From positions 1 to 18,127 of the forward strand of contig CALJER010000023.1 of the NCBI GenBank assembly GCA_938074535.1: a stretch of 18,127 nt of DNA, given 5' to 3'. Below the pieces are notes generated by a model. It had not been told where the DNA came from. It did not search any database and worked only from the letters and a program-made list of their open reading frames with translations. Below, piece by piece: positions 13,384 to 18,127 of the stretch. The position numbers and the translations under genes are program-made. Position 1 is the stretch's first letter. Each line of letters begins with the position of its first letter. This DNA is from an uncultured archaeon (lineage in GTDB: Archaea > Hadarchaeota > Hadarchaeia > Hadarchaeales > WYZ-LMO6).

Positions 13384-14082
13384 ATGGGGCTCAGGGGCAG
13401 GCTGGTGGGTTTCGAGGACGTGGGGAAGGCCGTCCTGGTGGTGGTCGTCCTCAGTCTCTTCTCTTTCCTCTGGACCTCCCTCTTTCCCTCCCTCCTCCCC
13501 CTCTTCTCCCTCTCCCGGTCCCATCCGTGGGGGATCCTCACCGCCCTCTTCACCCACGCCGACGCCGACCACCTGCTCTCCAACCTCTTCTCCCTCCTGC
13601 TTTTCTCCCTCCTTTTCGCCCTCCTCCACTTCCCCCGCAGGGTGGAGGCCAGGAGGGATCTGAGTCTGGCCTTCACCCTCTCCCTCTTTCTCGCGGGGGC
13701 GGGGGTGAACCTGGCGGACTTCCTCTCCCGCGTGTTCTCCGGCTCCAACTCCACCTCCTGCGGCTCCTCGGGCATGGTCTACGCGGTGATGGGCATGCTG
13801 CTGGTTTCCTCCATCTACAACCTCCTCCTCTTCTCCCGCCTCTCCCTCAGGCATCCCGCCCTCAGGCTCCCCCTTCTCTTCGCCTCCTTCCCCGCCGCCG
13901 CCGTTCTGCTGGTCTTCTCCCTGGAACTCCTGCTCCACCCCTCCTCCTTCTTCAGTGTCTCCCCCTCCGCCAACGTCCAGTCCCACGTGCTGGGCTTCCT
14001 CTACGGGGCGGTGATCTTTTCTGCCCTCCTGGCCGAGAAACCCACCCGCCGGCCCCTCCTGCACCGCGTTCGCTTCCGCTAG
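13384..14082 (+). CDS. Rhomboid-family intramembrane serine protease
   Basis: PW..LTALFTHAD..HL.SN, catalytic GSSG (GxSG), N..SH..GFL.G; multiple TM segments. Confidence 0.85.
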   Translation: MGLRGRLVGFEDVGKAVLVVVVLSLFSFLWTSLFPSLLPLFSLSRSHPWGILTALFTHADADHLLSNLFSLLLFSLLFALLHFPRRVEARRDLSLAFTLSLFLAGAGVNLADFLSRVFSGSNSTSCGSSGMVYAVMGMLLVSSIYNLLLFSRLSLRHPALRLPLLFASFPAAAVLLVFSLELLLHPSSFFSVSPSANVQSHVLGFLYGAVIFSALLAEKPTRRPLLHRVRFR

Positions 14083-14170
14083 ACCCTCCTCTGCGCTTCC
14101 CCTCCATCCACTTCCGGGAAGAGCGGAGGGAGAGGAGGCCGGCCGCCAGCAGCGCTCAGCTCAGCCAGGA
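14079..14170. repeat. Degenerate direct-repeat copy of 15750-15843 (3' end of the membrane protein gene)
   Basis: 14091-14155 matches 15764-15828 at 64/65 nt; looser similarity extends to about 90 bp. Confidence 0.9.
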
Positions 14171-14247
14171 AGCCGGCCGTCGGGAGCAGGCGAAGACCTT
14201 TCACTGGTAATGCAAAGATTTTTAAAAACTTAGCACTAGCAAAATTG

Positions 14248-15543
14248 ATGCCTTCGGTGGAGGAAATCAAGTCGGCCATCGTGGACAGGGAGGAGCAGAT
14301 GGAAAAGGTGTTTTCTTCCGAGAACATCATTGAGAGGGAAAACCGGGGAATAGGAAGGGAGTTCGAGAAGGGCGTTGCGAACATCATCACGGGGGCAAGG
14401 AGGTGCGGGAAATCGGTGCTCGCTTTTCAGCTGGCCAGGAAGGAAAACTTTGGTTACGTTAACTTCGAGGACGAGAGGCTGGCCATGAAGGCGGAGGAGC
14501 TGAACAAGGTGCTTGAGGCCATTTGCTCCCTGAAGGGTGAAGTGGACACGCTCGTCTTTGATGAGATCCAGAACGTTGAAGGGTGGGAGAGGTTCGTGGG
14601 CAGGGTCCTGCCCGCCAGGAGGGTGGTGCTCACGGGAAGCAACGCCAGGCTGATGAGCAGGGAGCTATCCACCCATCTGACCGGCAGGCACCTGGATTTC
14701 GTCCTCTACCCCTTCAGCTTCAGGGAGTTCCTGACGTACAGGGGTGTGGGCTTCAGGAGGGAGGACCTCTACTCGACGCGCGGGGTGGCGCTGATAAAGA
14801 GGCACTGGCAGGAATACTTGGAGGTCGGCGGGTTCCCCCCAGCCCTCAGGCTGGGCAGGCTCTTCCTCCTCGAGAACTTCAGGGACATCGTCGAGAGGGA
14901 CGTGGTCCAGAGGTACCGGATAAGGCACCAATCGAAGCTGAAGGAACTCGCTAGGTACCTCATCTCGAATCCCTGCGCGGAGATCACCTACAACAGGCTG
15001 AAGCGGATGCTCTCGCTCGGAAGCGCGAACACCGTTCTGGAGTGGATGTCCTTTCTCGAGAGCTCCTACCTTGTCTTCAAGCTCGAGCGCTTCTCCACCA
15101 AGCTGAAGGAGTCGGCACTTGCCCCCAAGAAGATCTTTTCGATCGACACCGGGCTCTCAAACGCAGCCGGGTTCAGAATCTCGGAGAACAGGGGAAGGCT
15201 CATGGAAAACGCGGTTGCGGTGGAGCTCGCCAGGAGAAGGGATTACTGGAGGAGGGAGTGGGAGATATTTTACTGGAAGGATCACAGGCAGCGGGAGGTG
15301 GACTTCGTGATCAAGGAGGGAAGGAGGGTGAAGCAGCTCGTTCAGGCGTGCTGGGAGGTAACGCCTGAGGTTGAAAAGAGGGAGGTCGAGCCCCTTCTTC
15401 TGGCGATGAGGGAATTCGGGCTGAGGGAGGGTCTGATCCTCACCTTCGACCAGGAGGGGGAGGAGAGTGTTGGGGGAAAGAGGATAGTCTACAGACCCGT
15501 CTGGAGGTGGATGATGGAAGTAGATGAAGGTAAGCCGGTTTGA
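14248..15543 (+). CDS. AAA_14 + DUF4143 family ATP-binding protein (COG1373)
   Basis: ITGARRCGKS, YVNFEDERL, FDEIQNV.GWE, LTGSNA, LTGR, LYPFSFREF, GGFP, PKK.F.IDTGL, GRL.EN.V, YWK....EVDFV; TATA-like TTTTAAAAA about 24 nt upstream. Confidence 0.9.
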   Translation: MPSVEEIKSAIVDREEQMEKVFSSENIIERENRGIGREFEKGVANIITGARRCGKSVLAFQLARKENFGYVNFEDERLAMKAEELNKVLEAICSLKGEVDTLVFDEIQNVEGWERFVGRVLPARRVVLTGSNARLMSRELSTHLTGRHLDFVLYPFSFREFLTYRGVGFRREDLYSTRGVALIKRHWQEYLEVGGFPPALRLGRLFLLENFRDIVERDVVQRYRIRHQSKLKELARYLISNPCAEITYNRLKRMLSLGSANTVLEWMSFLESSYLVFKLERFSTKLKESALAPKKIFSIDTGLSNAAGFRISENRGRLMENAVAVELARRRDYWRREWEIFYWKDHRQREVDFVIKEGRRVKQLVQACWEVTPEVEKREVEPLLLAMREFGLREGLILTFDQEGEESVGGKRIVYRPVWRWMMEVDEGKPV

Positions 15544-15741
15544 CACCAAACAAAAACTCGAGTCGGCTACCAAAGGTTCGCCTAAATGGCGCTGTGCGCG
15601 TGCGCGCAATCCAAACTGGTCCTGGATAGACTTTCACAGTCCCCTCCTTCTTCGGTGCGGCTCCCCCGGCCGACGCTCACTCCCGCGTGACGGGCTTTGG
15701 GACGGTGATCTCCACAGAGGCGCCCCTGCCCCCGTGTGCCT

Positions 15742-16128
15742 TCACTGCCAGACCCTCCTCCTCCTGCGCTTCCCCCCCATCCACTTCCGGGAAGAGCGGA
15801 GGGAGAGGAGGCCGGCCGCCAGCAGCGCCCAGACCTCCCAGGAGAAGATGCCCCTGGAGAAGGAGCGCAGGGCACCCACCACGAAGAGGAGGCCGAAGAG
15901 GAAGGAAACGGGCAGGGGGGGAAGGAGCCGGGGAGGGAGGTCCGAGGAGACCAGGTCGAGGGCCACGGCCAGGCTGAGCCACATGAGAAAGGCCATCACG
16001 ATGAGGTTCGCGTCCAGCAGGTAGCCTCCCAGCAGGAGGACCAGGAGGGAGGAGAGGAGCAGGGAGGCTTCGGGCCTCTCCACCCACCGCCTGAGTATCT
16101 TCCTGAACTCCACCTCTACCATCACCAT
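15742..16128 (-). CDS. Hypothetical membrane protein (about 4 TM helices, basic C-terminal tail)
   Basis: Four hydrophobic stretches; co-oriented with and 39 nt downstream of the S26 cluster. Confidence 0.7.
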   Translation of the reverse strand: MVMVEVEFRKILRRWVERPEASLLLSSLLVLLLGGYLLDANLIVMAFLMWLSLAVALDLVSSDLPPRLLPPLPVSFLFGLLFVVGALRSFSRGIFSWEVWALLAAGLLSLRSSRKWMGGKRRRRRVWQ

Positions 16129-16167
16129 ACTTGGTTGGTTGAGAAAAAAGGTTCTCGGGAGCTCGTC

Positions 16168-16587
16168 TCACCGGGAGTAGATGATCCCTATCACCAGGCC
16201 CTTCAGCTCCTCCACCACGTAGTTGTCCGTGGAAGGGAGGGCGTCTCCCTTGGTCCTGAAGGAGCCCCCCAGCACCTCCACCACCCTGTGGACCACCAGC
16301 CTCCCGGAGCCAGGCTCTCGGTAGAGGATGAGGTCGCCCACCTTCGGGAGGGAAGGGTCCACCTCCACCCAGATCACCGTGTCGTTTTCCCCCACCGTCT
16401 TTCCCATCCCCCAGTCCTCCCCCCCGAGCAGGTGGAGCCTTCGGTCCAGGAAGGCCGTGTACCCCCCGAACCACTCCGTCCTGTTCTCCAGCTCCTGGGA
16501 GCGCCTGGAGAGGTGGAGGACGGACAGGAAGGTGACCACCCCAAGCAGGAGGAGGATCAGCAGGTTCAGGACGGTCTCTTTTCTCAC
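16168..16587 (-). CDS. S26 signal peptidase-like protein lacking the catalytic Ser
   Basis: N-terminal TM; KVGDLILY, VVHRVV and FRTKGD boxes are present, but box B reads DWGMGKTV instead of SxSMxP. Confidence 0.75.
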   Translation of the reverse strand: MRKETVLNLLILLLLGVVTFLSVLHLSRRSQELENRTEWFGGYTAFLDRRLHLLGGEDWGMGKTVGENDTVIWVEVDPSLPKVGDLILYREPGSGRLVVHRVVEVLGGSFRTKGDALPSTDNYVVEELKGLVIGIIYSR

Positions 16588-16591
16588 CCCT

Positions 16592-17251
16592 TCACCCCCA
16601 GAGCTCCAGGATGAGGTTGTCTATCCAGAGCTCCTGCCCGGGGAGGAGGGCGTAGCCCTCCCCGTCGTTGTCCCAAACCACGTTCATCCTGAGGTAGCCG
16701 TCGGCTGTTCCGTACCCTTCGCTGTAGAACACGTATTCCCTCTCGTCGGGAGCACAGTCGAAAGGGATGGTGAAGGCCCCGCTGGTCCCCAGCCAGACCT
16801 TCACGTTCTCCTTGACGGCGTAGGCCAGGTTTTCCCTGTCGGCCTTCGCTCTCACGGCCACCACGAGATCGAAGACCTCGTTGGCCTTCACAGTCAATAC
16901 CTGTCCGCTGTAGGAGAGCACGCCCAGCCACCTGAGGGAGTTGTCGGCAAGATTTTCGTAGGGCGAGTAACTACCGTGCTTCATGAGGTAGATGTTCTCT
17001 ATTCCCGTGAGCCCCCCCCTGGGGAGGGCGAGGGGCTGGGTGGATCTCCTCCCGGCTATGGTGAAGGTGGGCCCCCTCACCACCGCCTTGGGCCAGTTGT
17101 CGGCGGAGGGGGAAGGGGAGGAAGAGCGGGGCAGGAGCAGCAGCAGGGATACGAGGACGAGAACCACCAGGAGGAGGGGGGAGAGCTGCCTGAGCCTCCT
17201 CTTAAGGCGCCAGTACCTGTCCATCCCCCACTTAAGCTCTCCGGCCATCAT
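16592..17251 (-). CDS. Exported/membrane-anchored beta-rich hypothetical protein (paralog of 17733-18127)
   Basis: Basic N-region, hydrophobic helix (LLLVVLVLVSLLLLL), Ser/Pro linker, then a beta-strand-like domain; tightly packed between the two S26 genes. Confidence 0.75.
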   Translation of the reverse strand: MMAGELKWGMDRYWRLKRRLRQLSPLLLVVLVLVSLLLLLPRSSSPSPSADNWPKAVVRGPTFTIAGRRSTQPLALPRGGLTGIENIYLMKHGSYSPYENLADNSLRWLGVLSYSGQVLTVKANEVFDLVVAVRAKADRENLAYAVKENVKVWLGTSGAFTIPFDCAPDEREYVFYSEGYGTADGYLRMNVVWDNDGEGYALLPGQELWIDNLILELWG

Positions 17252-17273
17252 CCCCTCTCTGAGGGGGGTATTA

Positions 17274-17684
17274 TTACCTTGGGAGGACCCCCATCACCCT
17301 CCCCAGGATGTTCTCCCACCCCACCCTGTGCTCCTCCCAGGCCTCCGGCGAGTCTCCCCTCGTAACTACCACACCCTCCCCCAGTCCCACGATCCTGTGG
17401 GCCACGAGGGTGCCCTCGTACAGGTACACGATGATGTCCCCCACCCTGAGGCCGGCCGGATCCTCCTCCACGCACAGCAGGAGGTCGTTCTCGGTGAGGG
17501 AGGGGTACATGCTGCTCCCCATCAGGGTTAGGAACCAGATTCTCCGGTCGAGGAGGGCCCGATGGCCCAGGAAGGCGTTCGTCCAGTCCCTCGTGTCCCT
17601 GGGGGGAGGGGAAGGGAGGCGGAGGAGAAGCAGGAGGGAGAGGAGCAGGAGGAGGGTCAGGGCCGCCAGCCTGGGGTAACTCAC
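17274..17684 (-). CDS. S26 family signal peptidase (Ser-His, ER/SipW-type)
   Basis: N-terminal TM; GSSMYPSL (catalytic Ser), RVGDIIVY, VAHRIV (catalytic His), VTRGDS, ILGRV. Confidence 0.87.
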   Translation of the reverse strand: MSYPRLAALTLLLLLSLLLLLRLPSPPPRDTRDWTNAFLGHRALLDRRIWFLTLMGSSMYPSLTENDLLLCVEEDPAGLRVGDIIVYLYEGTLVAHRIVGLGEGVVVTRGDSPEAWEEHRVGWENILGRVMGVLPR

Positions 17685-17713
17685 AGAAAGAAAAAAGAAA
17701 GAAAAAAAGAAAA
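17685..17713 (-). terminator. Long oligo-U tract, candidate archaeal intrinsic terminator after the 17733-18127 gene
   Basis: Minus strand TTTTCTTTTTTTCTTTCTTTTTTCTTTCT, starting about 20 nt after the stop codon. Confidence 0.6.
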
Positions 17714-17732
17714 GGGTTGCGGTGGTCCAGGC

Positions 17733-18125
17733 TTACTTCCAGGTGTAGATGGTCAGCGGGTCGATGTTGATGGAGCCTCCGGCCGGTAGCTTGAAGCCGT
17801 TGCCGCCGTTATCGATGTAGTTGTACATCCTCAGCCAGGAGGATGGATAATTTTTGCCCACCGCTCCATAGGTAACATTTTCGGTGTGCCAGGGGCAGGT
17901 GGTTGCCCAGTCCGTCCCAGCCTCTAGCCTGTTTTCGGTCCTGGAAAAAGTGCCCGTGATTCTGATGTACTCATAGGTGTTCTCGAACCTCATGTAAGCC
18001 ACGTTGTCCCCCCTGATCTTGTACACGACCAGGATGTCGAAAGCCCTTTCGTAAGGTATGTTTACGGTTGCACCGCTGAAGCTTATGTTTTCATAGTAGT
18101 TGTCGCCTTTCACCCAGCTCTCTGG
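17733..18125 (-). CDS. C-terminal part of a beta-rich hypothetical protein (5' end outside the window); candidate filament/surface subunit
   Basis: The frame stays open to the window edge (PESWVKGDNYYENISFSG...), and the protein aligns by eye with 16592-17251. Confidence 0.75.
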   Translation of the reverse strand, partial: PESWVKGDNYYENISFSGATVNIPYERAFDILVVYKIRGDNVAYMRFENTYEYIRITGTFSRTENRLEAGTDWATTCPWHTENVTYGAVGKNYPSSWLRMYNYIDNGGNGFKLPAGGSINIDPLTIYTWK

Positions 18126-18127
18126 AG

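Follow-up and report, generated by a model that had tools for sequence, protein, structure and literature searches.

The DNA analysed here (the window) is the complete 18,127-base contig C23 of genome G000, from an uncultured archaeon of the order Hadarchaeales. At its right-hand end, on the minus strand, it carries a gene module in which comparison across the order has shown two co-evolving pairs, each made up of a predicted membrane-anchored immunoglobulin (Ig)-like protein, A or B, and a private Sec11-type protein, P1 or P2, the second of which is predicted to be dead. We tentatively read these as cognate client-peptidase pairs, in which P1 would shed the A ectodomain, the zinc-ribbon stub would serve as a cytoplasmic signal and P2 would bind without cutting; judged on the gene sequences and their arrangement, we give this reading a probability of roughly one in three (0.35). 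A dedicated S26B peptidase with cognate partners is an already known kind of system, and in the available portions of the fibre literature dedicated Sec11/SipW-type peptidases have until now been linked to TasA-like fibres. The novelty lies in the partners, an undescribed Ig-like family that matches no described protein family, in their cytoplasmic zinc ribbon and in a duplicated, conserved pseudo-peptidase, all in a module that is kept across the order. No published account of it was found in searches for Hadarchaeota in combination with signal peptidases and for inactive archaeal signal peptidase paralogs.

The first-pass annotation of this DNA had proposed a surface-filament system encoded by five tightly spaced minus-strand genes, and all five open reading frames (ORFs) are in place, with gaps of 4-48 nt between them (48, 22, 4 and 39 nt in the order A, P1, B, P2 and a small polytopic gene, from the ORF coordinates). 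P1 (17274-17684) is a short S26B (Sec11/SipW-type) peptidase of 136 residues with an N-terminal transmembrane (TM) anchor, recognized by the TIGR02228 model and its catalytic motifs. Gene B (16592-17251) encodes a 219-residue paralog of A that has no zinc ribbon, and P2 (16168-16587) is an S26B paralog of 139 residues, predicted to be a pseudo-peptidase from the motif at its nucleophile position and from its place in the tree. The relatedness of A and B proposed earlier was confirmed by BLASTP (27% identity over 118 residues, E 1e-9), in an alignment that spans the segments originally quoted for it.

The window covers its contig from end to end, so that the assembly, not a window edge, truncates gene A; its C-terminal 130 codons (17733-18125, minus strand, 5' end open at the contig end) encode the predicted Ig-like ectodomain. 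The rest of the gene could be recovered. It is complete in same-genus genomes, where it encodes 265-269 residues and where the fragment is 78.5% identical to the C-terminal part of the 269-residue protein of G064, and the N-terminal 86 residues of the contig's own A lie on another contig of the source genome, which is a 1.2 Mb assembly of 53 contigs with an estimated completeness of 93.6% (C18, 263..3, 88.5% identity). In the same-genus genomes A consists of a four-cysteine zinc ribbon, a basic linker, one hydrophobic helix and the Ig-like domain, in that order, and the N-terminus on C18, which reads MMRCPRCGYEW...CPRCK...LPWLAAAVVIVVAVGLGSWLWL, has the same ribbon and helix. About 50 codons of A fall in the gap between C23 and C18. 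Genes for a membrane protein without a Pfam family, a helix-turn-helix (HTH) regulator and a MarR-like protein come next on C18, and then the beginning of a gene for a giant secreted protein.

This architecture is common to A-type proteins from 21 loci, which share the ribbon motif MxCPRCGYEWxPKVPxPKECPRCKxRLDY followed by linker, TM helix and ectodomain. In pairwise comparison these 21 proteins, drawn from across the order, average 81% identity in the ribbon, 55% in the anchor and 38% in the ectodomain. The anchor has a median of 21 uncharged residues with Trp on both flanks, and a conserved Pro-Ala lies 2-6 residues past the helix, ahead of an extended strand-like stretch. Two A-type proteins carry a CcdA-type ribbon-helix-helix (RHH) domain in place of the ribbon: that of one genus (L042:8421-9185 in genome G061; residues 8-48) and P0026, an independent database entry. 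They score 33.4 and 30.8 bits, respectively, against a Pfam cut-off of 22.4. Comparison of the full-length sequences thus shows A to be a bitopic membrane protein, in which a single TM helix joins a predicted cytoplasmic zinc ribbon to an Ig-like domain outside the cell. The earlier view of A as a simple exported subunit has to be given up, as its anchor is preceded by the ribbon and has the length of a TM helix instead of being a classical signal peptide.

B is predicted to follow a similar plan, with a short basic cytoplasmic tail where A has the zinc ribbon; its TM anchor leads into a conserved xGPxF strand, and a linker and the Ig-like ectodomain complete the chain. Homologs of B numbered 12, of which 4 carry source names, all Hadarchaeales or Hadarchaeota. 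The B-type proteins form a single clade (support 99/99). A third paralog clade, the C type (99/97), is likewise ribbon-less and is located away from any S26 gene. In the C-type paralogs, and in a single A-type protein (L051), the anchor is followed by a motif PxWR(I/L)xxVW, which resembles the repeats of giant surface proteins described below.

The two Sec11-type proteins are 33% identical (E 1e-14). Against TIGR02228 (archaeal signal peptidase I) P1 gives E 4.3e-12 and 46.2 bits and P2 E 3.2e-8 and 33.6 bits, both under the model's cut-off of 51.85 bits; orthologs from other genera exceed it (66.5 bits for P1 of L039, 54.4 bits for P2 of L040). With a profile of the S26 subfamily to which both belong, human SEC11A/C are the closest solved relatives (E 3e-12). 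P1 has the Ser (GSSMYPS), His (AHRIV) and GD (TRGD) motifs and falls in the active part of the S26 tree; from these motifs it is a predicted Sec11/SipW-type peptidase with intact Ser and His. P2 retains the His (VHRVV) and GD (TKGD) motifs and carries DWGMGKT in place of GSSMYPS, without the Ser. The pattern W-x-M-G-x-T is invariant and the Ser absent in 13 of 13 aligned P2-type proteins from five genera (the His is kept in 9 of them), and the maximum-likelihood tree groups all 14 proteins without the Ser in a single clade (99/98), with members from families f1, f3 and f5. As the loss is common to all P2-type proteins and these make up one clade, P2 would be an old, selected pseudo-peptidase, and we predict it to be a conserved pseudo-enzyme of the S26B family. 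Of the two S26 peptidases originally annotated, the part that stands is that they are paralogous short S26B proteins; the second one lacks the nucleophile (WGMGKT versus SSMYPS).

Both proteins were also said to share an F.G..A.LDRR segment, which is real and part of a longer one, N.T..F.GY.AYLD..I, found ahead of box B in P1 and P2 types throughout the order. The other S26 genes of these genomes match the subfamily model only from about position 48 onward, and the two groups separate clearly, with subfamily matches reaching at least 111 bits over nearly the whole model and housekeeping or other S26 matches reaching at most 81 bits, over the catalytic core only. The active S26 of the module is not the only Sec11 candidate of its genome, since two further S26 genes, on C44 and C17, pass the TIGR02228 cut-off. 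The 168-residue one on C44, encoded among PCNA, primase and TFS genes, is likely the housekeeping Sec11, judging from this gene context. This separate Sec11 and the tight linkage of A/B and S26 genes across the order bear out the proposal that the peptidases of the module are dedicated. The second gene (C17:16668-20080, L060) encodes a 384-residue protein with an S26B domain and a long hydrophobic C-terminal half, and was observed to be flanked by three proteins that have hydrophobic N-termini and no NCBIfam family.

Of 66 genomes from the phylum, 34 carry genes of the A/B family, among them 18 of the 26 genomes of high quality, and 32 carry the specific S26 subfamily; 31 genomes have both, 3 only A/B and 1 only the S26. 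Linkage is close in both directions: a subfamily S26 lies within 1.5 kb of 40 of the 51 A/B matches, and an A/B gene lies within 1.5 kb of 43 of the 47 subfamily matches. The idea that A/B homologs have S26 neighbours thus holds for most of them, not for all. Two locus states occur, A with the active S26 alone in most genera, and A, active S26, B and dead S26 together in five. In 12 of 13 loci the immediate neighbour of the dead S26 is a B-type gene, and complete loci that have the dead S26 always have the active one as well. Because the dead S26 proteins (99/98) and the B-type proteins (99/99) each form one clade, the pair was duplicated once, as a pair. Taken with the motif comparisons, the trees show B plus dead S26 to be an ancient duplicate of A plus active S26, in which B would have lost the ribbon and P2 the Ser. 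By gene content, A with the active S26 is the universal module, and B with the dead S26 appears as its accessory duplicate in five genera.

A dead enzyme retained beside B for so long would be a binder of something, most simply of B, and by homology P1 would bind A. In the client-peptidase reading, P1 would do so just outside the membrane, at the conserved Pro-Ala stretch, and would cut A past its anchor, so that the Ig-like ectodomain is shed to the cell surface and a zinc-ribbon-TM stub is left behind. Because conservation is much stronger in the ribbon than in the ectodomain, and because one lineage has an RHH domain in its place, we take this stub to be the cytoplasmic output, which may act on the HTH regulator often encoded beside the module. 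In 15 of 34 genomes a gene of this regulator family shares a contig with an A/B gene and is no more than 1.3 kb away from it; G000 is added via C18. A rhomboid gene also lies close by in the taxonomic family of G000. The A-P1 pair would thus be a proteolysis-coupled surface-to-cytoplasm device and, if the signalling by shedding is true, an archaeal regulated-proteolysis pathway that runs on a private signal peptidase. P2, which would not cleave, may hold B uncut.

The scheme has precedents. In the available parts of the reports on the anti-sigma factors RsiV and RsiP, site-1 cleavage by signal peptidase starts signalling (PMC4183432, PMC8844934). As far as those accounts describe them, they resemble A in being bitopic N-in membrane proteins with a cytoplasmic regulatory domain, putative in A. 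The two cases differ in that RsiV and RsiP are cut by the housekeeping bacterial peptidase, whereas A would have a dedicated one; moreover, archaea to our knowledge have no sigma factors. For P2 the model would be SipA of streptococcal pilus assembly. SipA/LepA of the Streptococcus pyogenes pilus islands are described, in the available portion of the source, as inactive signal-peptidase-like proteins thought to act by binding (PMC4049620). Judged from that portion, SipA (PDB 4n31, 4k8w) and P2 share the S26 fold, the loss of the catalytic Ser and a location with genes for Ig-like surface proteins, and our S26 profile reaches SipA weakly (E 0.023). SipA, however, is a sortase-associated protein of bacterial P-type (Ser/Lys) descent, whereas P2 descends from Sec11/SipW-type enzymes, retains the His in 9 of 13 proteins and always accompanies an active paralog. 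The layout of A itself recalls staphylococcal TcaA, which is built from the same three parts, zinc ribbon, TM helix and ectodomain. Of 23 A-type proteins, 6 match the NCBIfam TcaA model weakly, the best with E 0.0094 and a score far under the cut-off; the TcaA ectodomain is unrelated to that of A, and we know of no peptidase linked to TcaA.

Several observations weigh against the client-peptidase reading, and three of them, the ribbon-less paralogs, the internal Met and the distant relatives, also against the two main rivals discussed below. The anchor of A, with its median of 21 uncharged residues, is of TM length, and peptidases of the endoplasmic reticulum (ER) type cleave such anchors poorly. 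The zinc ribbon is absent from the B-type and C-type paralogs, so that signalling cannot be the whole story. A ribbon-less form of A itself is possible, since an internal Met lies 2-4 residues ahead of the K-L-P-W start of the anchor in 20 of the 21 A-type proteins (e.g., L038:9423-10232) and many database gene calls for these proteins begin there, without the ribbon. The HTH regulator belongs to a multi-copy family and is absent near the module in about half of the genomes. As for the peptidase, 11 of the 51 A/B matches, several of them at contig ends, have no subfamily S26 nearby, and there is none within the 2.7-7 kb analysed around three closely related AT-rich loci (L057-L059) that encode distant relatives of the ectodomain.

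The fold of the ectodomains was approached through profiles and models. Neither A nor B matches a Pfam family at E<=1; 23 A-type relatives searched at E<=5 gave zinc-ribbon models and chance matches, with no ectodomain family, and NCBIfam returned no ectodomain family for the A fragment, B or these 23 proteins (E<=1). Searched against 1.84 billion representative proteins, a profile of the ectodomain matched only 143 clusters (E<=0.001), and of the 142 analysed 18 carry a zinc ribbon, in two sequence types. The same profile found nothing among PDB sequences, with no fibre protein at E<=10. AlphaFold2 models of A (mean predicted local distance difference test (pLDDT) 66, with most ectodomain blocks at 79-90) and of B (mean pLDDT 76.3) are beta sandwiches whose closest fold matches are generic Ig-like domains. 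The closest of those listed was the Pycsar AGS-C domain (9ard_B), with Z 6.5, root-mean-square deviation 3.0 and 102 aligned residues for A and Z 5.7, 3.6 and 102 for B, although by the notes of the search tool Z scores below 8 may reflect only a common arrangement. RhoGDI, beta-2-microglobulin and Gram-positive pilins followed at Z 4-5. Foldseek gave no match at E<=0.001 for either model, and in the ESM Atlas B met only unnamed or CBM-type clusters (0.88-0.90) and the A ectodomain no usable named match. No known enzyme fold was matched by A or B.

That A, B and the C-type ectodomains are subunits of a fibre, sheath or envelope layer, matured by P1 and with P2 as an assembly chaperone, the ribbon being incidental, is the first-pass proposal in general form and a reading that we regard as rather doubtful. 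Several features favour it. There are several paralogs per genome (the A, B and C clades), and an extended strand-like stretch (GTATITGIAG..., AVVRGPTF...) comes past the anchor; in the B model, strand 55-59 lies in a block of mean pLDDT 86 ahead of linker blocks of 47 and 50, and this strand with its floppy linker resembles, in the prediction, a self-complemented donor strand. Genes for giant secreted proteins and for a MinD/ParA-like ATPase often lie nearby, Gram-positive pilins are among the weak fold matches (Z 4-5), a protein that looks pilin-like by eye is encoded beside the distant relatives, and the SipA parallel comes from pilus assembly. The near-invariant cytoplasmic ribbon and its replacement by RHH are left unexplained, however, and the anchor has the length of a TM helix and not of a short signal-peptide core. 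If the ectodomains did build a fibre, they would be a new subunit class.

The narrow form of the surface-structure reading, a TasA-type donor-strand fibre as first suggested by analogy with TasA and the bundling pili, is quite improbable. As far as the available accounts of tapA-sipW-tasA and of the AbpA, tafi, cannulae and thread loci go, the module resembles them in having a short ER-type S26B beside beta-rich presumed clients and, for tapA-sipW-tasA and the archaeal fibre loci, in having paralogous clients within one locus. Unlike the subunits of TasA-type loci, A has a cytoplasmic zinc ribbon and a TM-length anchor, the module includes a dead second peptidase, and neither A nor B shows a sequence relation or a clear fold relation to TasA-type proteins. 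Searches of Pfam, NCBIfam and PDB sequences gave no sequence or profile match of A/B to TasA/camelysin, DUF1102 or other fibre families, and TasA, AbpA, cannula and thread chains were not among the fold matches listed. NCBIfam holds a model for the N-terminal signal peptide of SipW cognates, and this family was absent from the matches of B, the A fragment and the 23 A-type proteins. With no profile match, membership of the TasA superfamily is unsupported by sequence, and the generic Ig-like fold matches (Z 5.7-6.5) speak neither for nor against it. The lack of specific matches also tells against a fibre or envelope-layer role in general.

Alternatively, A and B may not be substrates at all. 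They would then be type-II-anchored beta-sandwich subunits that embrace their S26 partner in stable complexes like that of SEC11 with SPC22/23, A-P1 processing other clients (e.g., the neighbouring giant surface proteins) and B-P2 acting as a non-cleaving receptor for signal-like segments; this would make them a prokaryotic counterpart of the SEC11-SPC22/23 core, by analogy and conceivably by descent. We consider such complexes unlikely. According to the available part of its structural description, SPC22/23 consists of a beta sandwich with an N-terminal anchor and embraces SEC11 (10.1101/2020.11.11.378711). The reading is favoured because A and B share, as far as that description allows comparison, its layout of N-terminal TM helix, short strand and beta sandwich, because their anchors are of TM length, and because the strict 1:1 gene pairing with parallel duplication is typical of obligate binding partners. 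For a dead enzyme next to B, binding is the main role that makes sense; a conserved extra segment ahead of box B sets the S26 subfamily apart from the other S26 genes of these genomes; and the closest solved relatives of P1 and P2 are SEC11A/C of the eukaryotic complex (E 3e-12; PDB 7P2P and 7P2Q). On the other hand, no homology of A/B to SPC22/23 is detectable and these chains are absent from the listed fold and sequence matches, which does not exclude homology; the zinc ribbon stays unexplained and, like the pseudo-enzyme duplicate, has no counterpart in the eukaryotic complex; and the genome's own housekeeping Sec11 does without a partner of this kind. If the stable complex is true, it bears on the origin of the multi-subunit eukaryotic signal peptidase.

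It is hardly credible that the S26 genes are spare general signal peptidases beside unrelated membrane proteins, with no functional link: the 11 of 51 A/B matches without a subfamily S26 nearby and the distant relatives, also without one, would fit, but the adjacency has been kept over the divergence of five families, both partners were duplicated in parallel and a pseudo-peptidase cannot serve as a spare general peptidase. As a shedding device, a stable complex or a fibre alike, the module offers a testable handle on the cell surface of an uncultivated phylum.

The fifth gene of the tightly spaced row (15742-16128, minus strand), called from its ORF and hydropathy, encodes a small polytopic membrane protein of 128 residues. 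It had been described as having four TM segments; it is indeed polytopic, and a simple hydropathy scan gives 3-4 hydrophobic stretches. We considered it as a core part of the module and dropped it, because it adjoins the module only within the genus g1 (5 of 5 genomes), and weak matches in other genera sit on contigs without the module's loci; it is probably outside the core.

Two kinds of neighbour recur in other genera. In 5 of 10 mapped loci the immediate neighbour of the module, or of an orphan B-like gene, is a gene for a MinD/ParA-type P-loop ATPase (L040:10633-11439, L041:9450-10247, L044:5557-6366, L045:10842-11672 and L046:10909-11712), and genes for giant surface proteins with many tandem AxWxLIETWTGT-like repeats stand beside the module (L039:11058-14422, L040:11440-17961, L045:11693-13144, L046:11728-13722; also L047-L050). 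A WxLIETWTG-type motif was tried as a link between the A, B and C proteins and the giant proteins in the source genome and was rejected, since it is absent from the N-terminus of the giant protein of G000, which confines the shared-motif idea to other genera. The distant ectodomain relatives of L057-L059 are proteins of about 200 residues with many N-x-S/T sites, encoded on metagenome contigs of 32-33% G+C among genes for very large proteins and small membrane proteins, one of them the pilin-like one; a single-protein scan of the genome contigs returned none of these AT-rich relatives.

The region of the window next to the module holds two further genes of note. A rhomboid-family intramembrane protease gene (13384-14082, plus strand, Pfam E 3.7e-10) is convergent to the module and is also found near it in G063, G064 and G061. 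Between the two, the region of an AAA_14/DUF4143 ATPase gene (14245-15543) is flanked by an imperfect direct duplication (13943-14170 and 15643-15843) that copies the rhomboid gene and the small polytopic gene at their 3' ends, with an 80-nt block 93% identical, a 55-nt block 75% identical and a mean column identity of 79% when the two regions are aligned. G063 has no ATPase insertion at the module, and in G064 (L038) another AAA_14-type ATPase block lies between P2 and the polytopic gene, with the 3' end of P2 duplicated (14246-14479). From these sequence arrangements, the AAA_14-type ATPase genes seem to be mobile and to make long target duplications.

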